DNA of 64,000 nucleotides from Bacteroidia bacterium (GTDB taxonomy: Bacteria; Bacteroidota; Bacteroidia; Cytophagales; Cyclobacteriaceae): positions 31,927 to 95,926 of the forward strand of contig JANMYO010000048.1 of NCBI GenBank assembly GCA_031382175.1. The letters are read 5' to 3'. The notes below the pieces were generated by a model, which was not told the DNA's origin, did not search any database, and saw only the letters and a program-made list of their open reading frames with translations. The position numbers and the translations under genes were made by a program. Positions 15-35,279 of the stretch are shown piece after piece. Within the stretch, counting starts at the first letter, position 1; each line of letters starts with the position of its first letter.

Positions 15-823
15 CGCCTGACGAGAAAGGCAGTCTGGTTCAGTTCATGATCGAAGGACATGGAGTGAGCCAACGCCAGGCGTGTATTGCTTTAGACGTG
101 CCACGTAGTACCATTCAGTACACACCAAGACCAAAAGAGGATGGCGAGCTCATTGATCATCTCCAGGAGTTAGTGACTAAACATCCAGCCATTGGATTTT
201 GGAAGTGCTTCTACCGTATTCGTAAAAAAGGATTTCAATGGAACCATAAACGCGTTTATAGGGTCTATACAGCACTAAAATTGAACATTCGCAGGAGACA
301 TAAAAAGCGTCTGCCGGCACGCATCAAGCAGGCTTTATTTCAACCAGAAGCCATGAACCAAGTATGGTCAATTGATTACATGAATGACAGCCTGTGGGAT
401 GGAAGAAAATTTCGATTACTCAATGTAATTGATGATTACAATCGCGAAATACTAGCCATGGAAGCTGATCTTTCATTACCTGCTTTGCGGGTTATTCGGG
501 TACTGGAGTACTTGAGAGAATTTAGAGGTTTGCCACAAATGATTCGAGCTGATAACGGTCCTGAATTTATTTCTGATGCACTCCATCAGTGGTGTCGGGA
601 AAACAAGATTACATTGGCGTACATTCAGCCCGGTAAGCCAACACAAAATGCTTATGTGGAACGGTGCAATGGAAATATCCGTAGAGAGTTTTTGAATGCT
701 TCTATTTTTCAAACGCTCTCAGAGGTGCAAGAAAAAATGAACGATTGGATGTACGACTACAACCATCATCGACCACATCAGGCGCTTAATTTCAGAACAC
801 CTGTGGAATTATTAACTTTATGA
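2..823 (+). CDS. IS3-family transposase OrfB (DDE/rve integrase core), 5-prime partial
   Basis: The reading frame is open from base 2; KKALAPDEKGSLVQF precedes the first Met at 47. WSIDYM, RADNGPEF and YVERCNGNIRRE motifs match the DD(35)E core of IS3-family OrfB proteins. Confidence 0.9.
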   Translation, partial: KKALAPDEKGSLVQFMIEGHGVSQRQACIALDVPRSTIQYTPRPKEDGELIDHLQELVTKHPAIGFWKCFYRIRKKGFQWNHKRVYRVYTALKLNIRRRHKKRLPARIKQALFQPEAMNQVWSIDYMNDSLWDGRKFRLLNVIDDYNREILAMEADLSLPALRVIRVLEYLREFRGLPQMIRADNGPEFISDALHQWCRENKITLAYIQPGKPTQNAYVERCNGNIRREFLNASIFQTLSEVQEKMNDWMYDYNHHRPHQALNFRTPVELLTL

Positions 824-971: not shown

Positions 972-1730
972 CTACACCCCGCTATCCACCGCAGCAATAA
1001 CCAGGGCATTGAAGGCTCCGTTGCGCAAAGGATAAAGTGCCCCATTCACCTCCTGCTGGAATTCAATCCCAAAAGCAAGGAACAAAGGCTTGGTGCTGGC
1101 AGGCGTAACCGCTTGCGTCAGTGTCAAGGCCGGCAACGGTGCAGGAGATAATAGAAAGTTCGCACTTTGTGAAGTGCTGGCCACATAGGTTCCCTGTTCA
1201 AAATCAACCTCGGCCGCCCCGGCTATAAGTCGGAAATGAGTGGAGCCCGGAGGAGCTGCAATCATATTGGACGGAATAAATTCCGGGATGTCTACAGAGA
1301 GAGTTCCGCTGGTACGGTCAATGACAGAAGTATAAGGAGCAAAAAATGTTTTGTCCACCCTTCCATTCTCATTGAACTCAAATCCGCGAAGAAGCACCGC
1401 CTCGCCATCAATCACATTGCGTTTTCCGCGCGTGTTCGTGGCATCCGCCTGAATCACCTTCATCATCTGGCGGGTAAGCCGGCTGGCCATCCTGCCATCC
1501 GCTACAGTGAGGATCAACGTGCGCAGTGCCGTGCGCAATAACTTACTGGAAGCCCCGGCTCGCCCAAACTCTTCTCCGTTTTCACGGGTGCGGGCAAAGG
1601 CCGGATCATTTTTAATACGCTCCCCATCCACTCCGCTCTTTAGCCGGACGAGGTGCCCATCCTGGGACTTATAGAAGGAGATGCCCCCCATCTGTCCCGT
1701 CAACTTGATAACGCCATCTTGTCGCGCCAT
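972..1730 (-). CDS. Hypothetical protein (252 aa), no family recognised with confidence
   Basis: Long uninterrupted ORF with an ATG start. By eye it is much more G+C-rich than its flanks. It is bounded on both sides by word-repeat arrays and lies next to an IS3 end. Confidence 0.6.
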   Translation of the reverse strand: MARQDGVIKLTGQMGGISFYKSQDGHLVRLKSGVDGERIKNDPAFARTRENGEEFGRAGASSKLLRTALRTLILTVADGRMASRLTRQMMKVIQADATNTRGKRNVIDGEAVLLRGFEFNENGRVDKTFFAPYTSVIDRTSGTLSVDIPEFIPSNMIAAPPGSTHFRLIAGAAEVDFEQGTYVASTSQSANFLLSPAPLPALTLTQAVTPASTKPLFLAFGIEFQQEVNGALYPLRNGAFNALVIAAVDSGV

Positions 1731-1935
1731 AAATTAAATTGTTTAATTGGTCCACCCTGTTTGTTCAGGCACAGGTTGGATAAGCCTTCGCTGCAGCGTA
1801 AGCCAAACATAAAAGGAGTGGCGATAAAAAAGGAAGACGCGCTTCCGCAAGTGGTCATCAACGTTCCCTTATTCCGCTACGACCGAAATCGTTCAAAGTT
1901 GAAATTTTCAACACTTCATTCCGCATTCATTTCTT

Positions 1936-1983
1936 AATCTTTCAATTTTCAAATCTTCAAATTTTCAAATCTTCTAATCCATC
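1936..1983. repeat. Six phase-locked 8-nt units containing a solo copy of the four-helix-bundle cassette terminal repeat
   Basis: Units are aatctttc aattttca aatcttca aattttca aatcttct aatccatc. The 15-mer tcaaattttcaaatc at 1957-1971 is identical to 53057-53071 and to the reverse complement of 52681-52695. Confidence 0.85.
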
Positions 1984-1998
1984 TTCCCCAGGTCTTAA

Positions 1999-2029
1999 GC
2001 ATAGATAAAGCGTAGATAAAGCATAGGGA
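1999..2029. repeat. Tandem 11-nt repeat, about 2.8 copies
   Basis: The copies gcatagataaa gcgtagataaa gcataggga can be read directly. Confidence 0.7.
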
Positions 2030-2053
2030 GTGTATGAAAAAAAATGATACGAA

Positions 2054-2289
2054 ATTGCGAGCACCTGGGTTGGATATGCGCTGGAGCGAAGCAATCCCCT
2101 AATGTTGAAGACCGATGTTAATTTGGTTTTTCAAACCTCCATGCCAATTAACAACGGATATCAAAATAATCACACGTCAATTGCGACCCCGATAGCTATC
2201 GGGGGAAGCAATCCCATAATGTTGCGGGATCACTACCAAGGGCAAGCCCTCTAAATTGTCAAGGTCATTTCGAGTGTGAGCGAGAAATC
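2054..2289. repeat. Cluster of Bacteroidota-type intergenic palindromic repeats
   Basis: A 20-mer, gaagcaatccc(c/a)taatgttg, occurs at 2088-2107 and 2205-2224 with 1 mismatch. Each copy is preceded by an attgcga...gcaat hairpin. The second hairpin carries the perfect 18-nt palindrome ccccgatagctatcgggg (2187-2204). A gtcatttcgagtgtgagcgagaaatc hairpin-like element lies at 2264-2289. Confidence 0.7.
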
Positions 2290-2436
2290 TAACAGATAGC
2301 TTTCCACGGATTGCTTAAGAAATTTACTTCCTGGATTTTGAGAGCTGATCAATTGAATGGAAAACGATTGTGCGATGAGAAGGGTATGAAAATTTAGATT
2401 TATTAGCCACCTTCACAACAATAACAAGTGAGCTGA

Positions 2437-3018
2437 ATGAAGGTTTACAACTCCATAAAAAGGGCAATAGATTTTTTAATGGCAATACTTTTACTGACGT
2501 TGCTTTCGGGGTGGCTCATCCTGATGATGTTGACGTATTGGCTGTTGGGGGAACATCCCATTTTTTTTAAGAGTTGGCGCAGTGGAAAAAACAAAGCTCC
2601 TTTTTGGATGCTGAAATTCAGAACCCTTTCAACGGATGAAAAAAAACCATTACACGAAAGACGATTCCTCATGGGCAACTTCCTACGCAAAACAAACCTG
2701 GATGAATTGCCACAGTTATGGAATGTTCTGAAAGGGGAGATGTCGCTTATTGGGCCTCGGCCTCTGCCGGTAGAGTATACATCATTACTTTCGGAAGAGC
2801 AAAGTAAAAGATATGAGGTAAAACCCGGCATCACAGGCTGGGCCCAGGTAAACGACAGACACTCTATTTCATGGCAAAAGAAATTTGAATTGGATAACGA
2901 TTACATTAGGAATGTTTCTTTTGGCTTTGATCTTCTCATACTTTTAAAAACCATTGTATTACTTTTATCCTTTCGAAAAGATAATTCTCTGGTGGAAGAA
3001 AAATTCAAAGGCAATTGA
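2437..3018 (+). CDS. Undecaprenyl-phosphate sugar phosphotransferase, small PglC/WbaP-C-terminal type
   Basis: There is a single N-terminal TM segment. The DELPQLWNVLKGEMSLIGPRP and KPGITGWAQV motifs are those of the bacterial sugar transferase family. Confidence 0.85.
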   Translation: MKVYNSIKRAIDFLMAILLLTLLSGWLILMMLTYWLLGEHPIFFKSWRSGKNKAPFWMLKFRTLSTDEKKPLHERRFLMGNFLRKTNLDELPQLWNVLKGEMSLIGPRPLPVEYTSLLSEEQSKRYEVKPGITGWAQVNDRHSISWQKKFELDNDYIRNVSFGFDLLILLKTIVLLLSFRKDNSLVEEKFKGN

Positions 3019-3659
3019 AAGAAGACATCGCAATCTATGGGGCGGGCGGACTGGGCCGCGAATTGGCACTGATGATTCAACAAATCAATGCGGTGCAGGA
3101 GCGATGGAACATCATCGGATTTTTTGATGATGGACTAAAGCAAAATGACAACATTGATAATTGGAAAATTATAGGCGGACTAACCGAAGCGTGTCAATGG
3201 AATCAGCCGCTGGCAATAGTAATAGCGATCGCAGATCCTCATGTTCGGGTTGCGTTAGTGAAACAGTTAGTAAATCCAAAGCTGAGATTCCCAACCTTAA
3301 TTCATCCAACGTGCAATAGGGGAGATGAGCAGAGGAATCATATCGGTAAAGGAGTAATCCTTACATCCAATGTGATACTGACAACGAATGTGAGATTGGA
3401 AGACTTTGTTATCATTAACCTGAGCACCACCATCGGTCACGATGTAACCATTGGAGCAGGTTCATCCATCATGCCGGGGTGTAGCATTTCAGGGAATGTA
3501 AAAATAGGAGCAAGATGCCTGATCGGTACGGGAGCTCGCTTCTTACAAAACATTTCCATTGGGGAGGATAGTATCATCGGGGCAGGAGCAGTAGTAACGA
3601 AGGACTTCGGGCCCAACAACAAGATCATAGGGGTGCCGGCAAGGAAGGTTGCAAAATGA
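3015..3659 (+). CDS. NeuD/PglD-family sugar N-acetyltransferase (left-handed beta-helix)
   Basis: An N-terminal IAIYGAGGLGRE Rossmann-like segment is followed by hexapeptide repeats (IGAGSSI, IGARCLIGTGA, IGEDSIIGAGAVV). The TTG start overlaps the upstream stop (TTGA). Confidence 0.8.
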   Translation: MKEDIAIYGAGGLGRELALMIQQINAVQERWNIIGFFDDGLKQNDNIDNWKIIGGLTEACQWNQPLAIVIAIADPHVRVALVKQLVNPKLRFPTLIHPTCNRGDEQRNHIGKGVILTSNVILTTNVRLEDFVIINLSTTIGHDVTIGAGSSIMPGCSISGNVKIGARCLIGTGARFLQNISIGEDSIIGAGAVVTKDFGPNNKIIGVPARKVAK

Positions 3660-4204
3660 ATTGGAAAGAAAATCGCCCGGCTTTAAAGTTTCTGGGTTTA
3701 TTCCTGGGAGTGTACGGGATCGGCAACCTCCTCTATGGCTTCTACATAGAATACAACTACCCGCGGGTAGATCAAATGACACAGTGGGTATCCAAACAAT
3801 CGTCATGGCTTATCAATCTGCTATCGGATGTGGAAACTACTTCCGTGTTGAGTACCTCAAGTCCCATCACCCTGATGGTGGAAAACGGAAAAACAGTGCT
3901 CCGCATTTACGAAGGGTGCAATGGTATCAATGTCATGATTGTATTCATCGCCTTCATCATGTCGTTTGGCGGCCTCACCAAAAGAGGAACATTATTCATG
4001 TCCGGAGGAGTGCTGACAATTCATTTGGCAAACGTGATTAGAATCGCGCTGTTGTTTTGGGTAGCAAAGCATCATGAAACATGGTTCTATTATGTTCATA
4101 AATATATTTTCACGGCCGCGCTGTACGTGATTGTGCTGCTGCTGTGGTGGGTGTGGGTGTCCAAAATGATAAAGACAAATGACCGTGCCAAACAACAAAC
4201 TTGA
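3656..4204 (+). CDS. xrtF: Exosortase family protein XrtF
   Basis: A 182-aa polytopic membrane protein. It has the exosortase catalytic-type Cys in YEGCNGINV (Cys codon 3917-3919), an Arg in LANVIRIALL and downstream His residues. Its size and its pairing with the next gene match the Bacteroidota XrtF system. The start overlaps the previous stop (ATGA). Confidence 0.75.
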   Translation: MNWKENRPALKFLGLFLGVYGIGNLLYGFYIEYNYPRVDQMTQWVSKQSSWLINLLSDVETTSVLSTSSPITLMVENGKTVLRIYEGCNGINVMIVFIAFIMSFGGLTKRGTLFMSGGVLTIHLANVIRIALLFWVAKHHETWFYYVHKYIFTAALYVIVLLLWWVWVSKMIKTNDRAKQQT

Positions 4205-4625
4205 TACACGAACCGTGCTGATGCTAATCGCAGGGCTGATCGGCCTGGCACTGGTCTATGTTTTTCAGCGATTCAATTACGGCCAGCTCCTGCTGCAGGT
4301 ATTGGGAATTGAAGCAGGAGAAAATGTAATATTCATTGTGAACAAGACACTGCGCTTGCTGGTGAATGATACCATCGGCTGCCTGATGATTTTTGCTGTC
4401 TTCAAAGAGAGAAAGGAACGACAAATTGCAATGGTGATTTTTTTGGTAGAATTGTTGGTGATTTTACCCGCCTATCTGATCATGAAATTAACATGGGAGG
4501 GAAGCAGTGAAATTTCCTCTCCTTTGCTCTCCTTCATCCACCGCCTGGTGGTCAATCCAACATTGATGGTAATAACCGGAATAGCCCTGGCCTATCAGAA
4601 ATTTGTGTACCCCAATCATAACTGA
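4179..4625 (+). CDS. Exosortase F system-associated membrane protein
   Basis: A 148-aa multi-TM protein that overlaps the xrtF 3-prime end, the arrangement reported for the XrtF partner family. The start could instead be the Met at 4221. Confidence 0.6.
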   Translation: MTVPNNKLDTRTVLMLIAGLIGLALVYVFQRFNYGQLLLQVLGIEAGENVIFIVNKTLRLLVNDTIGCLMIFAVFKERKERQIAMVIFLVELLVILPAYLIMKLTWEGSSEISSPLLSFIHRLVVNPTLMVITGIALAYQKFVYPNHN

Positions 4626-4744
4626 TGTTACACAGGTATTGTCAGCCTGAGGCCCTCGAAGGCGATTTAGCATATGGTTATCAGTTTTCGTCCCGATAGC
4701 TATCGCGATCAAACTGACAGATTCATTAGTTTTGCGTAACATCA
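4623..4744. repeat. About 120-nt nested inverted-repeat element in the xrtF-partner / aminotransferase spacer
   Basis: The outer 9-bp arms are tgatgttac (4623-4631) and gtaacatca (4736-4744). Inner arms are tgtcag/ctgaca and tcagttt/aaactga. The core is the 12-nt palindrome cgatagctatcg (4694-4705), also seen at 2189-2202 and 40584-40597. Confidence 0.6.
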
Positions 4745-4758
4745 CTTCATAATGTATA

Positions 4759-5874
4759 ATGGCTCAAATTTCAGTACCACTTTCATATTCAAAAATTGCC
4801 GGTGAGGAATTGCTGCGCGTTTTGGCAGAGTGGGAGGGCAAATCCCATGAAGAACTGATTAAGGCATTTGAAAATAAAATAGCTGAAATAACCACCAGCC
4901 CATTTGCCGTGGCGCTCAACTCGGGCACAGCCTCCATCCACTTAGCCTTGAGGATGCTAGGTGTATCAACCGGTGATATCGTTCCTGTATCTAACTTTAC
5001 CTATGTAGGATCAGTAAGTCCCATTTTTTATTTAGGAGCCCGGCCTGCATTGATTGATAGCGAAGCGGAGACTTGGAATATGGATCCCGGATTATTGGAG
5101 ACCTGCCTCAGAGATTTATCCTCCCAAAAAAGATTGCCAAAGGCTATCATCGTGGTGCATGCATATGGAATGCCTGCAAAAATGGAAGAGATTGTTGCGA
5201 TTGCAAAGGCCTTCGGTATACCCATCATTGAAGATGCGGCCGAAGCGCTCGGTGCAAAATACAAGGGCCAGGTTACTGGTAGCTTGGGAGAAATTGGCGT
5301 TTTGTCCTTCAATAGCAATAAATCAATAACAACATTTGGCGGTGGCGCATTGTTGACCAAATCCAGGGAAGTATATGAGAAAGCAAAATTTCTGGCTACC
5401 CAGGCACGGGAAGACCGACCGTTTTATGAGCATAAAGAAGTAGGGTATAACTACCGGATGAGTCCTTTGAATGCTGCTTATGGGTTAGCGCAATTAGGGA
5501 AAATGTCCCAAATAATTGAGGAGAGGAGGGCAACTTTTGAACAGTACAGAAAAAACTTGAAGTCACCAGAAATTGGCTTTTTAGACGAACCGGAGCACTT
5601 TTTCTCGAGCCGTTGGCTTTCCACAGTTCTTTTGGGGCCAAAGCATGATCCAGTATCAATCCAGTCAAAACTTAGTGAAGCAGGCATTGAAACCCGCCCG
5701 CTGTGGAATCCAATGCACTGTCAGCCTGCGTTTATAAAGGAAATAGCCTACAAGAGCGGAGTAGCGGAGCAACTTTTCAGGAGAGGATTGTGCTTACCCT
5801 CTGGAGAAAATTTATCGCGTGAGGCACAGGAAAAAGTAATCGTGGAGTTGCAGAGAAGTTTGGGTTACAAATGA
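4759..5874 (+). CDS. DegT/DnrJ/EryC1/StrS-family PLP-dependent sugar aminotransferase (PglE-like)
   Basis: The ALNSGTASIHLAL and IIEDAAEALGA motifs are present, with the PLP-lysine context SFNSNKSITTFGGGALL. Confidence 0.85.
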   Translation: MAQISVPLSYSKIAGEELLRVLAEWEGKSHEELIKAFENKIAEITTSPFAVALNSGTASIHLALRMLGVSTGDIVPVSNFTYVGSVSPIFYLGARPALIDSEAETWNMDPGLLETCLRDLSSQKRLPKAIIVVHAYGMPAKMEEIVAIAKAFGIPIIEDAAEALGAKYKGQVTGSLGEIGVLSFNSNKSITTFGGGALLTKSREVYEKAKFLATQAREDRPFYEHKEVGYNYRMSPLNAAYGLAQLGKMSQIIEERRATFEQYRKNLKSPEIGFLDEPEHFFSSRWLSTVLLGPKHDPVSIQSKLSEAGIETRPLWNPMHCQPAFIKEIAYKSGVAEQLFRRGLCLPSGENLSREAQEKVIVELQRSLGYK

Positions 5875-5915
5875 GTTTTATAGGGCATTTAAAGTGATTT
5901 AGAGTGGTAATTTAT

Positions 5916-5923
5916 TACTTTTG
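5916..5923 (+). promoter_or_regulatory. Candidate Bacteroidota -7 promoter box (TAnnTTTG)
   Basis: TACTTTTG lies 28 nt upstream of the ATG at 5951. No clear -33 TTG was found. Confidence 0.35.
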
Positions 5924-5950
5924 TTAAAACTGCAGAAATTGAACTTTAAG

Positions 5951-8900
5951 ATGGGAAAGCTAATCGTGTTACTCCTGTTACTTCCAGCGATGGTAATGGC
6001 TCAGGACGGAGACTACAGATCGAGGCAAACGGGTAATTGGGCTACTGCCACAACATGGCAAGTGCGTGTGAGCGGAGTTTTCCAGAATCTTGAAACGGCA
6101 GCGGCAATACCCTATCAAAATGTCATCCCCCAAACTTCCGCCAGCCCTGCCACTGGTGTTATAACAATCTCAAATAACGTTACCGTATCAACTGCAATAA
6201 CGGCTGATCAAGTCACAATTACAGCCAACACCCTTACCATTTCAGGTGCAGGAGTATTGACCATCGCAGATGGAAGCGGAGATGATCTAACTCTTTCGGG
6301 TGGAGCAATATCGGTAACCACAGGCGTATTGGTTATCAATGCAGGAGCAACCTACAATCATGCGCGCAATGGAGGAACCATTCCTCTGGCAACCTGGAAC
6401 ACAGGGTCAACCTGTTTGGTAACAGGGATCGCTGGTACCTCGCCAACGTTGAATGCATTGAGCAGCTATCAGAATTTTACCTGGAATTGCCCTGGACAAA
6501 CAGCTACGATTACCCTCGCCAGCAACCTGCGGGATGTTAATGTGAATTTAAGTATTGAAGATACAAATGATCAGCAGCTACGGTTTGGAACAGCAACTGC
6601 CTACACGCTGAATATCGATGGTGATTTTAATGTCACAGGCAACTCGCGGATAGCCTTTGGTACAACGGCTGCTGCTGTAGTAATCAACCTGCTGGGTTCA
6701 TTCGATTTCTCATCAACTGCTGTTACGGCATCCTTACTAAAGTCCTCAGGTTCGTATACTTTTAATGTTGGTGCCGATTTTTCGGTGACTTCAGGGTTAT
6801 TGACAATGTCAACCGGAAATAATGCGGGTACCGTCAATGTAGGAGGAGATTTTTCGCAACTCCCAAGTACAATTACTGAAACAGGTGGAGGAAGCGGTGC
6901 TTTTGTTTTCAACGGCAGTGTTTCTCAAAGCCTAAATTCAACCGGTACAATCTCAAGTACCATCAATTTTCAAGTGAACAATGCTGCCGGTGTTGTTCTC
7001 AACTCACCATTCTCTTTTCCTGGGGCGCTAACGCAAACGCTGGGAGATATTGACCTTAATAACAACATTGTTACCCTCAATGGAAATTTTAGCCGAGTAA
7101 GTGGAAATTTGATTTTAAGCCCCTCAGTAGAGTTAATAATTCAAGGCGCTGGAACATTACCGGCATCAGTAAGCTTCAGCGGAACAGATTTATCCAGACT
7201 TGAAATGAACAGGGCAGCAACGACACTGACAACGAGCAGTAATTTTACAGTGACAACGTTAAATCTTCTAAATGGTACGGTGACGCATAGTGGTACATTG
7301 ACCATAGCGGATGGGGGAACTATTGAAAGAAGAAGTGGAAGCATAACAAACGCCCCTGCAGCAGCCAATGTCTACAATGTCTTATACAGCAATACAGGAG
7401 CAATTAATACAGGGCCTGAACTTCCTGCCTCAGCAACAACACTAAACAACCTGACCAAGCAAGGGGCTGGTACCGCTACATTGAATCAAGCTTTAGTTAC
7501 TATTAACGGCAACTTCACAACAGTGGCTGCCGGAGGAACATTTGCAATGGCTGCAAATAGCATCTCTTTGGCTGGTAACTTCACCAGCGCTGCTGCCTTG
7601 ACAGCTACCACTGCATCAGCATCTACATTCACTATTACTGGCAATTGTGTGCTTACAAGTACAACTACACCTCAAGTCAATAATCTGGTAGTAACCGGAA
7701 CATTAACCCCTGCCGGAACGGGCAACTACAGAGTAAATGGAAACTATACCGTCAATCCGGCTGCAACAGTCAATGCTGGTGTGGGTACGGTAACCTTCGG
7801 TGGTACAACCGTGGTGACAAATAATGGAACCATGAATTTGCGTAACGTGACCTTTGGTGCTGCTGCCAACACAATGACTGCGCCTGTCACAACCATGGGA
7901 ATTGCCGGCAACTTTACATCAAACGGAGTATTCACCAATGGGGGAGGCACCATTTTATTCAATGGAACTACAGCCCTTTCTGCAGCAGAAGTATATAATA
8001 ACATCACGATATCAGGTACGGTTACCAGCGCGAATGTGGGACAGACAGTTGCAGGAAATATGATCAATAACGGATCCTTCAATATTGGCACGGGTAATTT
8101 GACGTGGTCTGGAAGCGGAACGTTGTCGGGGACAGGCACTACTACGGTTGCAGATGTCAACGTAAGCGGAACATCGTTCACCTACACAGCATCCGGGAAT
8201 TTGACGCTGAACGATGATATTTTAGGTGCAGGAAGTTTTGACTCATCAGGATCGTCAGGTACTGTAATTTTTGCGGGAGGTGCATCTTCCATTGCGGCAG
8301 GTGGAGCAAGAACGCTCAGAAGCATTTCAGTGACGGGTACTTTTACACCTGCAACTACCTACACGTTAGTTGGTGTGGGTGGGTTGGATGTTACAGGAAC
8401 GCTAGCCTCTGGAGGTACTATTGTATTTGGAGGAACTACCCAAACCATTACGGGGTCCAGCAATGCTATTGCCTTCAATACATTTACTACCAATGTGGGT
8501 TCAATTCTCTCCATTACACCTAACATTACCATTAACGGAAATTTAGCGGGCGCAGGAAGTATTACATCCGCAGGCACAATCACTTTTGTGGGCCTTACCA
8601 TGTCGGGTACAGGCACGAAGAACTTTACAAATGTTACGGTAGGAGCAGGGACATTTACCCCAAATGCTAATTACACCATCACAGGGAATCTTGTTGTAAC
8701 AGGAACACTGGCAGCCGGTAATGCAACCACTACTTTTGGTGGTACAACCCTTATTACAGGGACACCGACTTTCAATAATGTGATTATCACAAACACACTA
8801 ATATCTTCCACCGGTACGATTACTATGGTTGGGAATTTTACGAACAATGGAACCTTTAATCATAATTCCGGAACGGTTGCCTTCAGTGCGGCTGCAGGGG

Positions 8901-11900
8901 CATTGAAAAATATTTTGGGTTCTCAGAGCATCACATTTAATAATTTGCAAATCAATAATACCGTTGCAGGCACGGATGTTATAATCGGTAATGGGCAGTC
9001 AGTTAGCCTTGCAGGTAACCTTACTTTCGGTGAAGTAAATGCAACAATAGATACAAACGGTCAGGCATTTACAATTTTGTCTACAACAGATTCAAATGCA
9101 TCAACTAATGGAATGATTGGTAACATTACATTGGTCGGGTCTAACATTGTGGGTAACATTACAGCACAACGGTTTGTAAGTAGTGAAAACAGAATTTATA
9201 GATATATATCTTCGCCAGTGATAAATGCAACCGTTGCTGAACTGCAGAGTGTGATCCCTGTAACTGGGACTTTCACAGGTCCTTCAGATGGATCTTCATC
9301 CCCTCCATGCATAGGTTGTATTTCTACTTCACCTTCATTATTTCGTTACAATGCTGCTACTGCAGCGTATGAAGCCTTTCCTGCTTCCGGATTGCCAAGT
9401 GCAGCTATTTTTGAGAGTGGACGTGGTTATGCAGCATTTTTCCGTCACACGGGTTCAGGCGCGATTGGTACAGTGACACTTCATTTTACCGGCACCAACC
9501 CGTCAGGTAGTGTTCCAGTAACAGTTTCACCGTCTACAAATGGATATAGTCTTGTTGGAAACCCATATGCCTCACCGATTCGATGGGATAATAGTGCGGG
9601 TTGGGCAAAAACCAACATTGCGGATAACATTGTTGTAAGAAATAATGATGGTGGAGGTGATCAAATTTATAGCGCATTGGCAGGGACGGGTGTTATTGCG
9701 CCTGGTCAATCTTTTTGGGTACAATCAACTGCTCCGGGTGCATCGTTAACCATAAATCAGTCGGCAAAAACGCTCACATTAGGTACGTTCTATAAAGGTG
9801 GGGCTCCAATTTTGGATGAACTTGATCTAGTGTTGACAAAAACAGCTACCAGCGCAACGTATAAGGCAAAAGTGTCTGTGCAGTCAAACTCACTTCAAAC
9901 ATATGACCAATTCGATTTGGACGCTGACATTTACAATAGTATTGATGGTGTATCAACGGCACGTTATATTTCTACCCAATCCAGTGATGCGAGAGTACTT
10001 GGTGTAAATGCTGTCCCCAACATTATTTGTAATCAATCTTTTGATGTGAAGGTTACTAATTTTATTACTACCGGGGAGACGATAGTTAACTTTACATTAA
10101 CTGTAAACCCTTCAGGTTCATTGAAGGGAATTTCATGGGTGCTTCATGATAACTATCCTGCCCCTGGTGCTGATATAGATGTTTCTTTAAATCCAACGTA
10201 TAGCTTTAGTGTAGATAATTCAATCCCGTTGTCAAAGGTGTCAAATCGATTTAGTTTAAAAGCAGTTGCTGCTCCTGCAATTGATTTGACTAAGTCAGTG
10301 ACAGCAAGTGCATCAGTATGCACCGGGAGTGAAGCTGTGCTTACAGTTGCCAGCCAGAATGGCTTTACTTATGGAGCAGAAATTAATAATGGAAGCACAA
10401 CTACTTTCTATTCAAATCTTGCCCAAGGTGATGGTGGAGACATTATCATCTTTCTGGAGGACGCCTGGTTGAGTGTTGGAAGTAATAACACAATCAGAAT
10501 AAAGGCTAGCTCCGGCTGTGATTCACAATTTCTAACAGCATCCACTCAAATCACGAAAGAAGATCTTTACACGGCTGCTGGAATATCGGCATCAAGTTGT
10601 GTGACGGGATCGGTAACTCTTTCTGCCACCGGGGCGGCTCAGCCAACGAATTATCATTGGTACGCAAGTGAAACATCCTCCACCGTTCTGGCCTCAGGTG
10701 ATCAATTTACTACACCGGTACTTTCAGATACTACTACCTACTATGTTGCGGCTTTCAATTCACAAGGTTGTGATGGAAAGCGCATCCCGGTAACGGCCTA
10801 CATCAATAATCTCGCGGATCAATTTTTGGTGGATGCAAGTGCAGCCATCGTCTGCCGCAATAGCACCATTACATTCTCGGCAAACAGCGCGGTAAGTGGC
10901 ACCTACAAATGGTATGAAACACCTTCTTCTATAGATGTTATTTCTGCAAATGCAGAATTTACAACGCCTCCCTTAGCAAATACAACAAAGTATTATGTAT
11001 CGTTCACCAATGGTGCAGCCTGTGAAGGCGACCGAAAAGAAGTGACGGCCCAGATTTCTAATTTTGCACCCGTGCTGTGGGCCGATAATGATAAGAATGG
11101 GAAACAAATATGCCCGCAGGGTTCCTATGTGTTTACGGCAAATGGTGCACCGGTAAATACTTCCTACGCATGGTTTGAGTCCATGGAGGGTGAGGAACCG
11201 ATCACAGAGTCAACCAACTTCACAACCCCTTCACTGGATGCCTCAAGAAATTATTATCTGGCAGCTAAAAATGAATTAGGCTGCTTCACAGACCGCTTTG
11301 TAGTGGAGGCCGTTGTTGATGAATCGAAGCCTGTTGCCAATTTCTCCTATACCTATGATAAGGTGTGTAAGAATGATGTATCGAAAGTGAAGTTAAGTTC
11401 CACCGAGTCAACCAATACAACCTACCGTTGGTATGAGTCGCCTTCAAGTGAAGTAAGCTTGAAAGAAGGTTTTGAATACACCACAGATGTGATTGGTGAC
11501 GATCAGACCTACTATGTCGCTGCAGTGAATGCCAATGGTTGTGAAGGAAACGTAAGGAAAGAAGTAGTCGTAGTGGTCACCAAATTCCCTGATCCTGTCA
11601 TTGAAGCTTCCCAAGGTTTACTAACTTCTAATTTTGCAGCTGGAAATGAGTGGTTCTATGATGAGGAATTACTGGGAAATGAAAAGAGCCAGACACTAAC
11701 CGTGACAAAACCTGGGCTATACAATTTAAAAGTTTCCTTTAATGGCTGTTTTGAATGGGCATCTCCAATATTCAGAACGGATTTCGTTACGGGCTTGGAA
11801 GACGAAGTCAGAACGATTGAGTTATATCCTAATCCAACATCCGATGTACTTTCAATTCGCGTGTCAAGTGTAGAGCCGGTGAAAGGTGAATTCTTTGACG

Positions 11901-12052
11901 AACGTGGCATCCGTGTACTACCGGTGTCTTTAAAACAGGAGGCAGAGAGTTGGAATGCAGACCTTGATGTGAGAGCCTTAAGCAAAGGATTGTATTTTCT
12001 AAAACTGTCATCCGGTGCTAAGTCAATAACCCATAAAGTGATCATTAAGTGA
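5951..12052 (+). CDS. Giant secreted cell-surface protein / adhesin with T9SS type-A C-terminal sorting domain
   Basis: The ATG at 5951 gives the signal peptide MGKLIVLLLLLPAMVMAQ; the track ORF starts at an upstream TTG. About 1000 aa of Thr/Gly/Asn-rich beta-helix-like repeats are followed by four Ig-like modules and a terminal CTD. Confidence 0.85.
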   Translation: MGKLIVLLLLLPAMVMAQDGDYRSRQTGNWATATTWQVRVSGVFQNLETAAAIPYQNVIPQTSASPATGVITISNNVTVSTAITADQVTITANTLTISGAGVLTIADGSGDDLTLSGGAISVTTGVLVINAGATYNHARNGGTIPLATWNTGSTCLVTGIAGTSPTLNALSSYQNFTWNCPGQTATITLASNLRDVNVNLSIEDTNDQQLRFGTATAYTLNIDGDFNVTGNSRIAFGTTAAAVVINLLGSFDFSSTAVTASLLKSSGSYTFNVGADFSVTSGLLTMSTGNNAGTVNVGGDFSQLPSTITETGGGSGAFVFNGSVSQSLNSTGTISSTINFQVNNAAGVVLNSPFSFPGALTQTLGDIDLNNNIVTLNGNFSRVSGNLILSPSVELIIQGAGTLPASVSFSGTDLSRLEMNRAATTLTTSSNFTVTTLNLLNGTVTHSGTLTIADGGTIERRSGSITNAPAAANVYNVLYSNTGAINTGPELPASATTLNNLTKQGAGTATLNQALVTINGNFTTVAAGGTFAMAANSISLAGNFTSAAALTATTASASTFTITGNCVLTSTTTPQVNNLVVTGTLTPAGTGNYRVNGNYTVNPAATVNAGVGTVTFGGTTVVTNNGTMNLRNVTFGAAANTMTAPVTTMGIAGNFTSNGVFTNGGGTILFNGTTALSAAEVYNNITISGTVTSANVGQTVAGNMINNGSFNIGTGNLTWSGSGTLSGTGTTTVADVNVSGTSFTYTASGNLTLNDDILGAGSFDSSGSSGTVIFAGGASSIAAGGARTLRSISVTGTFTPATTYTLVGVGGLDVTGTLASGGTIVFGGTTQTITGSSNAIAFNTFTTNVGSILSITPNITINGNLAGAGSITSAGTITFVGLTMSGTGTKNFTNVTVGAGTFTPNANYTITGNLVVTGTLAAGNATTTFGGTTLITGTPTFNNVIITNTLISSTGTITMVGNFTNNGTFNHNSGTVAFSAAAGALKNILGSQSITFNNLQINNTVAGTDVIIGNGQSVSLAGNLTFGEVNATIDTNGQAFTILSTTDSNASTNGMIGNITLVGSNIVGNITAQRFVSSENRIYRYISSPVINATVAELQSVIPVTGTFTGPSDGSSSPPCIGCISTSPSLFRYNAATAAYEAFPASGLPSAAIFESGRGYAAFFRHTGSGAIGTVTLHFTGTNPSGSVPVTVSPSTNGYSLVGNPYASPIRWDNSAGWAKTNIADNIVVRNNDGGGDQIYSALAGTGVIAPGQSFWVQSTAPGASLTINQSAKTLTLGTFYKGGAPILDELDLVLTKTATSATYKAKVSVQSNSLQTYDQFDLDADIYNSIDGVSTARYISTQSSDARVLGVNAVPNIICNQSFDVKVTNFITTGETIVNFTLTVNPSGSLKGISWVLHDNYPAPGADIDVSLNPTYSFSVDNSIPLSKVSNRFSLKAVAAPAIDLTKSVTASASVCTGSEAVLTVASQNGFTYGAEINNGSTTTFYSNLAQGDGGDIIIFLEDAWLSVGSNNTIRIKASSGCDSQFLTASTQITKEDLYTAAGISASSCVTGSVTLSATGAAQPTNYHWYASETSSTVLASGDQFTTPVLSDTTTYYVAAFNSQGCDGKRIPVTAYINNLADQFLVDASAAIVCRNSTITFSANSAVSGTYKWYETPSSIDVISANAEFTTPPLANTTKYYVSFTNGAACEGDRKEVTAQISNFAPVLWADNDKNGKQICPQGSYVFTANGAPVNTSYAWFESMEGEEPITESTNFTTPSLDASRNYYLAAKNELGCFTDRFVVEAVVDESKPVANFSYTYDKVCKNDVSKVKLSSTESTNTTYRWYESPSSEVSLKEGFEYTTDVIGDDQTYYVAAVNANGCEGNVRKEVVVVVTKFPDPVIEASQGLLTSNFAAGNEWFYDEELLGNEKSQTLTVTKPGLYNLKVSFNGCFEWASPIFRTDFVTGLEDEVRTIELYPNPTSDVLSIRVSSVEPVKGEFFDERGIRVLPVSLKQEAESWNADLDVRALSKGLYFLKLSSGAKSITHKVIIK
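10583..11583 (+). repeat. Four tandem ~80-aa Ig-like modules inside the adhesin
   Basis: The pattern C..GS..L.A......Y.WY.......G..FTTP.L...T.YYV.A.N..GC.G.R..V.A recurs four times. It resembles the CHU_C-associated Ig-like repeats of Cytophaga/Flavobacterium surface proteins. Confidence 0.7.
11816..12049 (+). other. T9SS (Por) type-A C-terminal sorting domain
   Basis: The adhesin ends IELYPNPTSDVLSIRV...RALSKGLYFLKLSSGAKSITHKVIIK. Confidence 0.85.
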
Positions 12053-12053
12053 T

Positions 12054-12245
12054 ATGAAAGTTCGCCTCATTTTTTGCTTCATACTCTTCTTTGTCTTCAT
12101 CACAGGAAGTCTGCTTGCCCAACCTGGTGATCCTGCGGGAGATCCTGATGTTCCCATTACGGGCATTGAAATTCTTCTAGGCCTGGGAGCTGCGTTGGGG
12201 GTCAAACGGATTCTTGGGCTAAACAGGAAATCAAAAAATCCTTAA
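12054..12245 (+). CDS. 63-aa secreted mini-protein with a PEP-CTERM-like tail (motif DVPITG, TM helix, basic cluster)
   Basis: The sequence splits as MKVRLIFCFILFFVFITGSLLAQ (signal peptide), then PGDPAGDPDVPITG, then IEILLGLGAALGV, then KRILGLNRKSKNP. The ORF fills the adhesin/dehydratase spacer exactly, starting 1 nt after the upstream stop and ending 2 nt before the next start. Confidence 0.6.
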   Translation: MKVRLIFCFILFFVFITGSLLAQPGDPAGDPDVPITGIEILLGLGAALGVKRILGLNRKSKNP

Positions 12246-12247
12246 CC

Positions 12248-14146
12248 GTGCTTACGAATACAATTCGTAGCCTAAAAATTCTTCCCCGCTGGGTCATCAT
12301 CGCCTTAGACCTGACCATCGTAGCTTTCTCGTGCATCATGGGCTACCTCCTTCGTTTTAATTTTTCAACAGATGATATCATAAGAAATAATGTATTTCAG
12401 GGTACATTACTTTATGTGGTGTGCGGCCTGGTGGCGGTGTTATTAACAAATAGTTACAAAGGGATAATCCGTTACACCGGCATTCAGGATGGTGCCCGTA
12501 TCATCTACATGGTGGTGCTGAATACGCTATTGGTGTGTAGTATTGACCTGGCATACTACTACAATCTGCACATCAATATTATTCCCTACTCAGTAGTATT
12601 AATTAGTTCGCTGTGTTCATTCCTCTTCCTGTTCAACTATAGATTGCTGGTCAAATATATCTTTACGTATTATAAGAATGCCATTTTGAAAAAATCACGG
12701 GTGATCATTTTTGGGGCAGGGCAAACGGGAATCATCACACGCCATGTCATCGATTCGACTCCGCGCATGCGCATAGCCGGCTACCTGGAAGACGACAAAA
12801 ATAAGATTGGAAAAGTACTGGACGGAGCAAAAATATACGATGCAAACAGTGAAGGACTGGAGGGTATACTGAAGGAACTCAATGTGGATGAGCTCATCTT
12901 CACAGCCAAAGACATTTCGCTGGAAAGAAAGAATGAGGTGGTAGACATATGTATTAGAAATCAGGTGAAAGTGCGAACAGTGCCTCCGGTGGAGAAATGG
13001 GTGAGGGGTGAACTAAGCTTCAATCAGATCAAAGAGGTGAACATTGAGGATTTGCTAGGAAGAGAATCGATTAAAATAAAGAATGAAAATGTTGAAGCAG
13101 ATATAAAAGGCAAGCGCGTTCTAATAACCGGGGCAGCGGGATCGATCGGAAGTGAATTGGTAAGACAGGTGCTTCAGTATAATCCGGATGCGCTGGTGCT
13201 GGTGGATCAGGCAGAGTCGGCCCTGTATGAAATGGAGCGGGAGTTGAAACTGCATTCTGGTGTAACAAAAGTGGCACTATACCTGGCGGACATTACAAAC
13301 AAAGAGAGAGTAGCCACTATTTTTAAAGACCATCGCCCTGAAATCATCTACCACGCGGCTGCTTACAAGCACGTTCCGGTAATGGAAAGCAATCCCTCCG
13401 AAGCCGTCTCGTGTAACATTTTAGGGACGAAGATCATGGCCGATTTGGCCATCGAGTTCAAGGCAATAAAGTTTGTGATGATCTCAACGGACAAAGCGGT
13501 GAATCCCACCAATGTAATGGGCTGTTCCAAACGCATTGCGGAAATCTATGTGCAGTCATTGAACAATTATTTGCAGGCAGAGCCGATAGCGAGAACCATC
13601 TTTGTCACAACCCGCTTTGGTAATGTGTTGGGCTCCAACGGTTCGGTAATCCCGCTCTTTGCAAAGCAAATAAAAATGGGTGGCCCCATCACAGTAACGC
13701 ATCCGGAAGTATCTCGTTTCTTCATGACCATTCCGGAAGCCTGTCAGTTGGTAATCGAAGCAGGAACCATGGGCAAAGGAGGGGAGATCTTTATTTTCGA
13801 CATGGGCAGGTCCATTAAGATACTCGACTTGGCTAAAAAAATGATCCGCTTATCGGGCCTGGATCCGGAGCGGGATATGAATATTGTCTTTACTGGATTA
13901 AGGGAAGGAGAGAAGTTATACGAAGAGCTGCTCACAAAATCAGAGAACACGATCCCTACCCATCATCAGAAGATCATGATTGCCAAAGTGCAGGAGTACT
14001 CCTATTTGGAAATCAACAGGTATGTGGAGTTGTTCAACGACTTAATCAATGACCGCAACGAGTTAAAGATGGTAACACTGATGAAAGAGCTGGTGCCGGA
14101 ATACAAGAGCAATTATTCCCGCTACGAAGTGCTTGATAAAGCGTAA
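12248..14146 (+). CDS. Membrane-anchored NDP-sugar 4,6-dehydratase, CapD/PglF/WbpM family polysaccharide biosynthesis protein
   Basis: N-terminal TM helices are followed by two Rossmann segments (VIIFGAGQTG and VLITGAAGSIGSEL) and the AAAYKHVPVME catalytic region. The start is GTG. Confidence 0.85.
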   Translation: MLTNTIRSLKILPRWVIIALDLTIVAFSCIMGYLLRFNFSTDDIIRNNVFQGTLLYVVCGLVAVLLTNSYKGIIRYTGIQDGARIIYMVVLNTLLVCSIDLAYYYNLHINIIPYSVVLISSLCSFLFLFNYRLLVKYIFTYYKNAILKKSRVIIFGAGQTGIITRHVIDSTPRMRIAGYLEDDKNKIGKVLDGAKIYDANSEGLEGILKELNVDELIFTAKDISLERKNEVVDICIRNQVKVRTVPPVEKWVRGELSFNQIKEVNIEDLLGRESIKIKNENVEADIKGKRVLITGAAGSIGSELVRQVLQYNPDALVLVDQAESALYEMERELKLHSGVTKVALYLADITNKERVATIFKDHRPEIIYHAAAYKHVPVMESNPSEAVSCNILGTKIMADLAIEFKAIKFVMISTDKAVNPTNVMGCSKRIAEIYVQSLNNYLQAEPIARTIFVTTRFGNVLGSNGSVIPLFAKQIKMGGPITVTHPEVSRFFMTIPEACQLVIEAGTMGKGGEIFIFDMGRSIKILDLAKKMIRLSGLDPERDMNIVFTGLREGEKLYEELLTKSENTIPTHHQKIMIAKVQEYSYLEINRYVELFNDLINDRNELKMVTLMKELVPEYKSNYSRYEVLDKA

Positions 14147-14152
14147 CTCTGA

Positions 14153-15046
14153 TTAGCGTTTAATGCCACCCCGCTTGTTGTAGCGGTAAGTAGGACTCTT
14201 TCTGCGCTGATTGTAACTGGGTTTCTTCTTAATGCCACCTCCACCAAGCTGAAAATTGCTAGGCAGATAATATTCGAGTTTGGCATTTAATAAAAAATAT
14301 CCGTCATTATTATCGGGACTGCCGCGCTGAGTACCGGCCGCTACTTCAGGCAATCCTAACTCGGGACGTCTGTCCGATAAAGCACCTGCAATAGGATCAG
14401 AAAATGCGGCAGATCCTTTGTGTACCGTGCTGACATCATCTAAATAATCAGTAAAGGTCTTACGATATCCACCCTCAATCGAAAGGTTGAGGAAGGGTGT
14501 CAACTTCAAACGTGCTCCTAATCCAAAAGGAAGAACCAGCGCAACTTTGCTATAATGAATGCCTTCTGTTTCCAGAGGTTGTAGAGCATATTTCTTTCCA
14601 AGATACTCGGTAGTCGGGTTAAAATAAGTTACTCCAAGTCCACCAAATCCATAAAGATTAAAGCCTGGCCTTCTGTAATAACGATTGCCTTGTGGAAAAA
14701 AACTCACGGCACCAGTAAGGCTTAACTCTACATTATTCGAACTGAAGGATAAATTCCTTTTTTTTCGGCTATTGTCATCAGCTTGTGCATCCGAACCCTT
14801 TAAGGTAAACCAGGTGGCTTCAGCGCGGGCACTTATCCTGGGTGTGAAGAAATATTGAAGACCGGCATTGATATTAAGTTTGGGATCAAGATAGTCTCCA
14901 TCATTTTTCAATTCCCCAAAATAAGAGGATGAACCCGTACCAGCCACCAAAATTAATGACCGCTCTCTCCGCAATGAATAGAAGCTTTGAGCAGAAGCCC
15001 ACTGGACAGATAATAAGAGTACCCAAATGGTTAAAAGTCTTGCCAT
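14153..15046 (-). CDS. Outer-membrane beta-barrel protein (porin-family-like), function unknown
   Basis: It has the signal peptide MARLLTIWVLLLSVQWASAQ, alternating beta-strand patterning and a basic C-terminal tail. Confidence 0.45.
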   Translation of the reverse strand: MARLLTIWVLLLSVQWASAQSFYSLRRERSLILVAGTGSSSYFGELKNDGDYLDPKLNINAGLQYFFTPRISARAEATWFTLKGSDAQADDNSRKKRNLSFSSNNVELSLTGAVSFFPQGNRYYRRPGFNLYGFGGLGVTYFNPTTEYLGKKYALQPLETEGIHYSKVALVLPFGLGARLKLTPFLNLSIEGGYRKTFTDYLDDVSTVHKGSAAFSDPIAGALSDRRPELGLPEVAAGTQRGSPDNNDGYFLLNAKLEYYLPSNFQLGGGGIKKKPSYNQRRKSPTYRYNKRGGIKR

Positions 15047-34995: not shown

Positions 34996-35279
34996 GGCTG
35001 GCATTCTGGCTATTGATTCTCTAGGTAGAGCTTAGCAAGGATTATACTTTGTTAAGCCCTATTCTATTTTGGCCCTTGAATATTCCCTTCCGGTTAGCTC
35101 GATTTTTTAAGCCTGAAGTGGTCTATTTTCATTCTTTATTGAGTCGATAAAACCGGGTTTTAAAACCTAATCCCTTTCCCATTTTCAACTAACCTTTTAG
35201 AGGGGATAAAACCGCTTTTTTGTACCAAAATTATAGGTTTTTTTGCCGCTGCAATAGCGATAGCTAGCCTAAAAAATAG

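Follow-up and report, generated by a model that had tools for sequence, protein, structure and literature searches.

The question raised by this locus is which protein an exosortase of the XrtF family acts on, and to what kind of acceptor the product may be joined. In Flavobacterium johnsoniae, XrtF and its partner protein are needed for sand colonization, biofilm formation, and zorb formation, with the substrates remaining to be found (PMC10936215), and the XrtF targets were still described as not known in a later preprint (10.1101/2024.12.02.626408). The window analyzed here is a 64,000-nt stretch of DNA from a bacterium of the Cyclobacteriaceae (Bacteroidota; Cytophagales), namely positions 31,927 to 95,926 of contig JANMYO010000048.1 in assembly GCA_031382175.1, and the gene string under study lies at 2437–14146 on its + strand. 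An earlier note, made from the sequence of the window alone, had reported there, in this order, a phosphoglycosyl transferase (PglC type), an acetyltransferase (PglD type), XrtF, the XrtF-associated partner protein, an aminotransferase (PglE type), a giant type IX secretion system (T9SS) cargo protein, a mini-protein of 63 aa, and a dehydratase (PglF type). This order is borne out: all eight open reading frames (ORFs), each on the + strand, were found at the positions given, and profile searches placed them in the families named. On balance, and with moderate confidence, the window is read here as an exosortase system of an exopolysaccharide (EPS) locus with a dedicated mini-substrate, in which XrtF would cleave the mini-protein at a VPITGIE motif and transfer the short peptide to a non-protein acceptor. 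Taken alone, the assignment of the mini-protein as a dedicated XrtF substrate can perhaps be held with good confidence.

The sequence of the mini-protein is MKVRLIFCFILFFVFITGSLLAQPGDPAGDPDVPITGIEILLGLGAALGVKRILGLNRKSKNP. It consists of a signal peptide ending in ..LLA before a Gln residue, the spacer QPGDPAGDPD, the motif VPITGIE, a Gly-rich transmembrane helix, and the tail KR..NRKSK—that is, a signal peptide together with a motif that is followed, up to the very C-terminal end, by a hydrophobic helix and a basic cluster, as is generic for the PEP-CTERM class. The "sortase-type tail" of the earlier note is therefore present with respect to its motif, helix, and basic residues, but its kind is that of an exosortase (PEP-CTERM-like) substrate rather than that of an LPXTG sortase substrate. 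When the window is translated in all six frames, the motif appears a single time. The Bacteroidota O-glycosylation motif, D-(S/T)-(A/I/L/V/M/T), was considered as another explanation of the conserved residues and rejected, since those around VPITG do not fit it. An N-terminal Gln after cleavage by signal peptidase I fits the phylum-wide Bacteroidetes Q-rule (PMC5837995).

For comparison with other genomes, an alignment of XrtF homologues was scanned against one genome per GTDB species, yielding 80 loci with XrtF identities of 40–67%, and the window proteins were compared by BLASTP with all ORFs of these loci, the counts given below being restricted to loci with enough sequence. In all 42 loci in which a giant could be paired with a PglF-type gene on the same strand, a mini-protein gene was found between the two, with product lengths of 57–81 aa and identities of 33–60%, and with the frame, length class, signal peptide, and motif kept. 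The distance from the stop codon of the giant to the start of the mini-protein was always between −14 and +18 nt, with a 4-nt overlap in 15 cases. In an alignment of 41 mini-proteins (A2), the signal peptide ends in ..A-Q, Gln-Pro is invariant, and a Pro/Gly/Asp-rich spacer of variable length (~8–35 residues) leads to the likewise invariant motif V-P-[ILV]-x-G-[ILV]-E, after which come a helix with the pattern L-L-x-x-G-x-x-x-G and a Lys/Arg tail; the invariant positions are Q-P, V-P, G, L, G, and G. Of the 44 loci having the motif, 43 contain a single copy, and in none does it lie within a large ORF. A profile search recovered 428 relatives, the best 120 of which are all 57–76 aa long and either nameless or called "hypothetical protein," and look-ups from two divergent mini-proteins led back to the same gene cluster. 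Thus, the recurrent linkage of a mini-ORF to XrtF, which the earlier note had put forward for checking, proved to reflect a real conserved protein family with an exosortase-type sorting tail, restricted to this gene context.

With respect to curated sorting signals, a scan of NCBIfam matched 16 of the 41 aligned mini-proteins to the PID-CTERM model NF046080, with no other family matched consistently. Their scores were 14–24 bits, below the cutoff of 26, as compared with 33–48 bits for true PID-CTERM controls. Membership was judged by NF046080 and by precomputed Pfam annotation, with a Pfam scan being negative for the true PID-CTERM controls too; the corresponding Pfam family, PF28310, was absent from the precomputed annotation of the 120 best of the 428 relatives. 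The tail of the window mini-protein (..DVPITGIEILLGLGAALGVKRILGLNRKSKNP) has the same layout as the tails of true PID-CTERM proteins, two examples being ..EIPIDGGASLLVAGGVAYGLKKLRDRRKAR and ..NIPIDGGLSFLALGGIAFGISRVRKNKK. The tail of the mini-protein, as predicted from these features, is a sub-threshold variant of the PID-CTERM exosortase sorting signal.

The enzyme itself scores well above the cutoff of the XrtF model TIGR04128 (Table 1). The second-best subfamily model was XrtX, with 102.5 bits against a cutoff of 170 and against 211 bits for a true XrtX control, and an XrtX identity was rejected on these scores. An alignment of XrtF homologues (A1) shows no variation at Cys88 (in an EGCNG motif), Arg129, or His148, and neither does one of canonical XrtF proteins (A3) at the equivalent residues; Cys, Arg, and His are the active-site residues of the exosortase/archaeosortase family. 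There are 216 close homologues, many of which carry the name XrtF from JGI or NCBI, and no relative of XrtF was found by sequence among the solved structures of the PDB. The partner protein matched TIGR04127 at a score under the curated cutoff (Table 1). It had no match to NF046082, the model for partners of XrtX, at E ≤ 10, as compared with a score of 119.8 for the partner in the XrtX locus L171 described below, and BLASTP detected no significant similarity between these two partners.

The whole string is conserved together with the mini-protein. Related loci came from Cyclobacteriaceae, Flammeovirgaceae, Roseivirgaceae, Ohtaekwangia, Chryseolinea, and Fulvivirga, and nearly everywhere in them the order PglC, PglD, XrtF, partner, PglE, giant, mini-protein, PglF was observed. 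The partner adjoins XrtF downstream in 79 of 79 loci, usually overlapping it, and PglD lies directly upstream in 58 of 72, a 4-nt ATGA overlap being the commonest junction. A PglC homologue was found within 4 kb of XrtF in 66 of 72 loci and a PglE homologue within 3 kb in 67 of 74; the giant is present downstream of XrtF in 43, the mini-protein in 42, and PglF in 40 of 48 loci. In the rearranged loci L009, L032, and L057, the whole gene set stays together, and L059 and L078 hold only the XrtF pair and the sugar genes, without the mini-protein. Furthermore, in a distant XrtF clade (P0252, 35% identity), the order PglD-like gene, XrtF, partner, DegT was found within a glycosyltransferase cluster. 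The arrangement is beyond chance because it recurs in ~80 independent genomes. The region at 2437–14146 is thus one densely packed, same-strand, operon-like string, inherited vertically across Cytophagales, and it forms a cassette that stays constant at the 3′ end of a polysaccharide-biosynthesis locus whose other genes vary. Downstream of it, synteny continues through a gene for a DUF6089 barrel, sucC, an ABC ATPase gene, a MiaB-like gene, and a phosphoglucomutase gene; the DUF6089 gene directly follows PglF in at least 31 related loci, and sucC and other housekeeping genes of the syntenic block are likewise kept.

The tight junctions reported in the earlier note are, every one of them, present in the sequence (features in Table 1). 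The stop codon of the phosphoglycosyl transferase gene overlaps the TTG start of the PglD-type gene in TTGA (3015–3018), the latter gene overlaps XrtF in ATGA (3656–3659), and XrtF and its partner share 26 nt (4179–4204), whereas the giant and the mini-protein are separated by 1 nt (12053) and the mini-protein and PglF by 2 nt (12246–12247). A "120-nt hairpin element" that the same note had placed after the partner gene was not found as such. The spacer there does hold 15-nt arms that are 87% complementary, but its predicted fold was no better than that of shuffled sequence (z = −0.97), it matched no Rfam family, it has no second copy within the window, and it is not conserved, the partner/PglE junction being closed or overlapping, without a spacer, in most relatives; a hairpin or riboswitch at this place was thus rejected. 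An identical 14-nt palindromic stretch occurs three times in the window, at 2188–2201 (upstream of PglC), 4692–4705 (in this spacer), and 40583–40596 (in a SAM riboswitch), probably by chance (E 0.025 each). A scan of 1700–14400 for promoters and terminators gave counts equal to the shuffled expectation, the sigma-70 consensus used being ill-suited to Bacteroidota.

Table 1. Features of the exosortase gene string and its immediate surroundings, with coordinates in the window.
Feature	Coordinates	Strand	Evidence or remark
IS3-family transposase ORF	47–823	+	rve and rve_3; context, outside the system; separates the cassette from the remaining polysaccharide locus
Small monotopic phosphoglycosyl transferase, PglC-like, 193 aa	2437–3018	+	Bac_transf, 188.5 bits
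NeuD/PglD-type amino-sugar N-acetyltransferase, 214 aa	3015–3659	+	TIGR03570 (NeuD/PglB/VioB), 189 bits (cutoff 160); PglD_N and Hexapep
XrtF-family exosortase, 182 aa, polytopic membrane protein	3656–4204	+	TIGR04128, 125.2 bits (cutoff 90)
Partner (XrtF-associated membrane protein), 148 aa, with three or more hydrophobic helices (hydropathy)	4179–4625	+	TIGR04127, 29.8 bits, E 5.7e-7 (cutoff 35)
Non-conserved intergenic spacer, 133 nt	4626–4758		Not regarded as a functional element
DegT/PglE-type sugar 4-aminotransferase, 371 aa	4759–5874	+	DegT_DnrJ_EryC1, 280.7 bits
Giant T9SS cargo	5951–12052	+	2033 aa from ATG 5951; 2043 aa from TTG 5921 (ORF opening)
Mini-protein, 63 aa, candidate dedicated XrtF substrate	12054–12245	+	No family match in Pfam or NCBIfam
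Membrane-anchored UDP-GlcNAc 4,6-dehydratase, PglF/WbpM/CapD type, 632 aa	12248–14146	+	Polysacc_synt_2, 393.6 bits; 4 N-terminal helices (hydropathy)
DUF6089 outer-membrane beta-barrel gene, convergent	14153–15046	−	DUF6089 and OMP_b-brl; membership of the system uncertain

The giant begins with MGKLIVLLLLLPAMVMAQ and consists of a signal peptide, a Thr/Gly/Asn-rich repetitive N-terminal half, a conserved core of ~500 aa, Ig_7 domains in four copies, and a C-terminal sorting domain of type A. Its scores against Por_Secre_tail (PF18962; 46.6 bits, cutoff 27) and TIGR04183 (35.2 bits, cutoff 23), together with its Sec signal peptide, identify it as a type A cargo of the T9SS, and Por_Secre_tail was also found in all four giants tested from related loci. 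Across 53 giants of the Cytophagales loci, the most conserved part corresponds to ORF residues ~900–1450. No PDB relative was detected by sequence, and an AlphaFold model of the core (from a shallow alignment, with a mediocre pLDDT of 69) had no significant fold match in the PDB (best E 0.07, TM ~0.1). A homologue search with the conserved core returned only 6 matches, low-complexity words having saturated the candidate list. In L019 and L006, a second giant adhesin-like ORF directly follows the mini-protein, at the usual position of PglF, indicating that the giant has been duplicated in places.

Outside this clade, the picture differs between two further groups. A HMMER search of 1.84 billion representative sequences returned 1279 relatives, which NCBIfam typing and pairwise scores separated into window-like proteins, canonical XrtF proteins (176–190 bits to TIGR04128), and XrtX; representative XrtF or XrtX proteins lying on short contigs showed little of their neighborhood. 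When an alignment of the canonical group was scanned against metagenome contigs, 80 Flavobacterium-type XrtF loci were obtained. The canonical pair (Fjoh_1448/Fjoh_1449 in F. johnsoniae; TIGR04128/TIGR04127) shares with the window the hidden Markov model family, the catalytic residues, and the adjacency of the partner (79 of 80 loci), but its enzyme is only ~30–38% identical to that of the window, and its neighbors are a GAF-domain protein, recognized by profile match, and apparent rpsO, pnp, and a small Cys-rich protein, read from sequence. No ORF with a PID-like tail was found in any of the 80 loci. Thus, the enrichment that the earlier note had proposed for xrtF neighborhoods holds inside the Cytophagales clade and not in Flavobacterium-type loci, where the lack of enrichment is what that note had named as refuting it. 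The linkage to sugar genes, giant, and mini-protein is clade-specific rather than a general property of XrtF, since those genes are missing within 10 kb of the Flavobacterium-type enzymes in the 42 tabulated contigs of at least 6 kb. For canonical XrtF, either the corresponding partners are encoded elsewhere in the genome or the systems differ.

In the XrtX group, by contrast with canonical XrtF, the arrangement of the window reappears in part. The XrtX locus L171 contains a T9SS giant of 1532 aa, a PID-CTERM mini-protein of 75 aa, XrtX, and its partner, without Pgl genes, and ~450 aa of the core of the window giant are homologous to the giant of this locus (28% identity, E 3e-21). PID-CTERM proteins adjoin XrtX (NF046081) and its partner (NF046082) in three of the five XrtX-type loci examined, namely L171 and two others, in which the PID-CTERM proteins beside the enzyme are 190–223 aa long. 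The module of giant, mini-protein, and exosortase therefore recurs independently with XrtX and, because L171 has it without Pgl genes, the giant, mini-protein, and exosortase/partner pair form the core unit and the sugar genes a clade-specific context. The XrtX/PID-CTERM system (NF046081, NF046080, NF046082; PF28310) resembles the window in having a small exosortase followed by a small polytopic partner, in substrates with [V/I]-P-I-x-G, a Gly-rich helix, and a K/R tail, in the string of giant, ~70-aa mini-protein, exosortase, and partner with a homologous giant core (L171), and in the polysaccharide genes near other XrtX loci. It differs in that the window enzyme is XrtF by score, the partner matches the model for the F type (TIGR04127), at a score just below its cutoff, the motif is VPITGIE and not PIDGG, all tested window-type mini-proteins fall under the PID-CTERM cutoff with no member above ~80 aa seen among those listed, and four Pgl-type genes stand between and beside those of the module. 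At 1–1168 (−) of L171, genes for a carbohydrate esterase family 4 (CE4) polysaccharide deacetylase and a 369-aa GNAT-type acetyltransferase adjoin the XrtX module, a pairing that recalls VimE/VimA of the T9SS linking-sugar pathway by resemblance only. The system of the window can be described as the equivalent, in the XrtF family, of the curated XrtX/PID-CTERM system, with a bacillosamine-type pathway interleaved.

That pathway is recognizable from its enzymes. A dehydratase, an aminotransferase, an acetyltransferase, and a phosphoglycosyl transferase together convert UDP-N-acetylglucosamine (UDP-GlcNAc) into an undecaprenyl-PP-linked 2,4-diacetamido-2,4,6-trideoxyhexose, the bacillosamine-type route of Campylobacter PglF/E/D/C. 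The assignment of the four window enzymes to this route by the earlier note agrees with their closest characterized relatives in the PDB, with the top matches of the PglC-, PglE-, and PglF-type proteins coming from C. jejuni or C. concisus. The best relative of the PglC-like protein, over its full length, is N,N′-diacetylbacillosaminyl-1-phosphate transferase (8G1N/8E37, E 8.8e-42), those of the aminotransferase are C. jejuni PglE (1O61, E 1e-80) and 4ZTC, and that of the dehydratase is C. jejuni PglF (5BJU, E 8.7e-91). For the acetyltransferase, VioB ranks first (E 1.3e-22), followed by WeeI (4M9C), the acetyltransferase domain of Neisseria PglB (4M98), and C. jejuni PglD (3BSS). On the basis of these relatives, a bacillosamine-type route is the best homology-based reading, with stereochemistry and acyl group lying beyond what can be read from sequence. 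Among solved structures, the Campylobacter enzymes thus rank first or nearly first as relatives of each of the four, and the N-terminal membrane domain of PglF is common to both systems; however, no oligosaccharyltransferase was seen in the window locus, its sugar genes are split by non-sugar genes, and it resembles an O-antigen/EPS cluster and not an N-glycosylation locus.

The nature of the surrounding locus is better seen in a close relative. L164, with an XrtF 100% identical to that of the window and the same gene order, reaches ~6.3 kb past the window start. At the position of the transposase it has HTH_Tnp_1 and rve, and upstream of this IS3 transposase are genes for a glycosyltransferase of family 4 (GT4), a UDP-GlcNAc 2-epimerase (Epimerase_2), an AbiEii/DUF6922 pair, a second DegT, and a second Bac_transf. 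The statement of the earlier note that the window holds no glycosyltransferase, flippase, or polymerase is accordingly correct in its glycosyltransferase part for the window itself, but not as a feature of the locus: glycosyltransferases adjoin upstream in L164 and other relatives, and their absence from the window is an edge effect, given the GT4 gene of L164 just upstream of the window start. In relatives, the genes upstream of PglC are variable and, to judge from their sequences, GT4-, WecA-like, epimerase-, GT2-, polymerase-like, and carbamoyltransferase-like; a further DegT and a further transferase are often found there too. The toxin-antitoxin-like AbiEii/DUF6922 pair of L164 stands among the polysaccharide genes, between the UDP-GlcNAc 2-epimerase and the second DegT. 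The locus has taken up mobile DNA. A 252-aa ORF at 972–1730 (−) of the window, without a Pfam match, recurs upstream of PglC in L045, L050, and L066 at 60–75% identity.

Taken together, these observations suggest the following sequence of events for the exosortase system proposed here. The mini-protein would be exported by Sec and cut by signal peptidase I before Gln, with its Gly-rich C-terminal helix holding it in the inner membrane. XrtF, together with its partner and by means of Cys88, Arg129, and His148, would then recognize VPITGIE and cleave there, and the freed Pro/Gly/Asp-rich peptide of ~12–35 residues would be transferred by XrtF to a non-protein acceptor, as has been proposed for other exosortases and archaeosortases. 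Whether the acceptor is itself the product of the flanking sugar pathway—that is, a glycan or glycolipid of the locus—with the conjugate serving the co-encoded T9SS giant at the surface, is a weakly held extension and rather unlikely. A still more specific version, a two-sortase relay in which XrtF would place the mini-peptide on the Pgl-made lipid-linked amino sugar or glycan and the resulting peptide glycolipid would be the anchor or acceptor for the giant after PorU removes its C-terminal domain (CTD), is regarded as speculative and improbable. For the chemistry of the proposed system there is published precedent: Veith et al. showed that an amide bond joins T9SS cargo to an amino-acylated linking sugar, and they speculated that a similar sugar, modified with an amino acid, receives the substrates of exosortases (PMC7468200).

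Several points weigh against the proposed system or against its detailed chemistry. A peptide of ~12–35 residues would be unusually small as the cargo of a sorting system. The window's own mini-protein had no match to NF046080 even at E ≤ 10, and the PID-CTERM scores of its relatives are all under the cutoff. With respect to the chemistry, PglD should acetylate the 4-amino group, and the N-terminal Gln of the mini-protein is probably cyclized under the Bacteroidetes Q-rule (PMC5837995); the two obvious amine nucleophiles for sugar-peptide-adhesin chemistry would thereby be removed. The occurrence of the XrtX module without Pgl genes nearby weighs against such chemistry as well. Among 42 tabulated contigs of at least 6 kb with canonical XrtF loci, no PglC/D/E/F homologue, giant, or mini-protein was found within 10 kb of the enzyme. 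Even inside the clade, the XrtF pair follows PglC-PglD-PglD in L040, L042, and L054 (all labeled Chryseolinea) and L047, with no PglE, giant, mini-protein, or PglF within 10 kb. Finally, part of the conservation is plain vertical inheritance of a block, since synteny runs on into unrelated housekeeping genes. As to Chryseolinea, other genomes of this genus (L034, L041, L049) have the full string, and the two kinds of loci together suggest a split system or a second paralogue.

The most probable alternative is that the genes are neighbors only, with the pgl-like genes making the initiating sugar of an O-antigen or EPS and the exosortase module being there by descent, without any chemical link between sugar and peptide; this is judged possible, although clearly the less probable view. 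It draws on the canonical XrtF loci without sugar genes, on the giant, mini-protein, exosortase, and partner of L171 without Pgl genes, and on the synteny that runs on into unrelated housekeeping genes. In addition, as is established for O-antigen loci, it is nothing out of the ordinary for a variable polysaccharide locus to end in a dehydratase, an aminotransferase, and a transferase that are constant. Mere proximity, however, does not readily account for the way in which the genes are interleaved with overlapping stop and start codons (with ATGA at PglD/XrtF the commonest such junction, and a gap of 2 nt between mini-protein and PglF here), an interleaving that is kept at XrtF identities as low as 40%, among the rearranged loci, and also by the P0252 clade. 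Moreover, exosortases as a class are associated with EPS loci, as summarized in PMC7468200.

It is quite unlikely that the mini-protein is not a substrate at all but a single-pass membrane accessory of the giant, such as a tether, chaperone, or regulator, with XrtF acting on proteins encoded elsewhere. A mature ectodomain of just ~12–35 low-complexity residues would suit such a role, the start of the mini-protein gene abutting or overlapping the stop codon of the giant points to the giant as its partner, and the window mini-protein fails every curated sorting-signal model. Against this, the invariant positions sit exactly at the site of an exosortase-signal motif, before a Gly-rich helix and a basic tail; the matches to PID-CTERM in 16 of the 41 mini-proteins are not accompanied by consistent matches to any unrelated family; true PID-CTERM proteins, of 75–223 aa, adjoin XrtX; and no other ORF with such a tail was found in the window or in related loci. 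The last alternative, that a short ORF annotated just as "hypothetical" and without a Pfam or NCBIfam match arose by chance in the gap between giant and PglF, is hardly credible and is already refuted by conservation: the frame, length class, signal peptide, and motif are kept in 42 loci at 33–60% identity, there are 428 database relatives, and the spacing to both neighbors is tightly constrained.

The dedicated-substrate system favored here can also be set beside two better-known surface-attachment systems. The PEP-CTERM/exosortase A (EpsH) system of Proteobacteria likewise has substrates with a Sec signal and a C-terminal motif, helix, and basic cluster, and an enzyme encoded in an EPS locus, and cleavage with transfer to an unidentified acceptor has likewise been proposed for it (summarized in PMC7468200). 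It differs from the window in its many substrates per genome, its PEP motif, and its larger exosortase, the window system combining a T9SS cargo and an obligate partner protein with one dedicated candidate mini-substrate. In the PorU system of Porphyromonas gingivalis and Tannerella forsythia (Wbp/Vim), which anchors proteins to A-type lipopolysaccharide (A-LPS), a sortase-like transpeptidation joins the C-terminus of the protein to an amine of the glycolipid (PMC7468200). Type A CTD cargo encoded with amino-sugar genes is found in the window likewise. However, the sugar route of the window is of the 4-amino-4,6-dideoxy kind and that of Wbp leads to a 2,3-diamino-uronic acid, and the window operon lacks VimA and VimE and has an exosortase and a mini-peptide, both of which the PorU/A-LPS system lacks.

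Elsewhere in the window, two further gene groups were observed. A SAM riboswitch (RF00162, 68.6 bits) at 40531–40653 (+) lies directly upstream of a methionine-cycle operon comprising genes for homocysteine S-methyltransferase (40696–41718), B12-dependent methionine synthase (42092–44791), and methylenetetrahydrofolate reductase (MTHFR; 44901–45857). Polyphosphate genes surround gyrB (34042–40442), in the order PPK2 (34042–34995), gyrB (35307–37265), PPK1 (37362–39494), and Ppx/GppA (39498–40442, −).

With respect to its significance, the locus offers a concrete candidate for the XrtF substrate, described as unknown in both PMC10936215 and 10.1101/2024.12.02.626408, and makes this open question testable. 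The mini-protein family, which has at least 428 members and of which those listed are nameless or called "hypothetical," could be captured by a new model, as could the partner of the Cytophagales clade, which scores just under the curated cutoff. In F. johnsoniae, biofilm formation requires the canonical XrtF pair along with T9SS genes and a DegT aminotransferase (PMC10936215). The phenotype rows for deletions of xrtF, Fjoh_1449, porU, porZ, the DegT aminotransferase gene Fjoh_0334, and the hypothetical gene Fjoh_0651 are identical in Table 2 of PMC10936215, and Fjoh_0651 was complemented with a 434-bp fragment including its promoter (PMC10936215). Since this fragment includes the promoter, Fjoh_0651 must be a very small gene, and its product may correspond, in Flavobacterium, to the mini-protein, which is to be taken as a lead and not as evidence. 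If the two-sortase relay were true, the exosortase and type IX sorting routes would converge on one molecule, and in Flavobacterium, too, the missing XrtF substrate would come from a tiny hypothetical gene of the kind of Fjoh_0651. Overall, the locus links an exosortase physically to a T9SS cargo and an amino-sugar pathway, matching the unexplained phenotype shared by xrtF, porU/porZ, and DegT mutants in F. johnsoniae, and this suggests that the exosortase and type IX routes of surface attachment cooperate.

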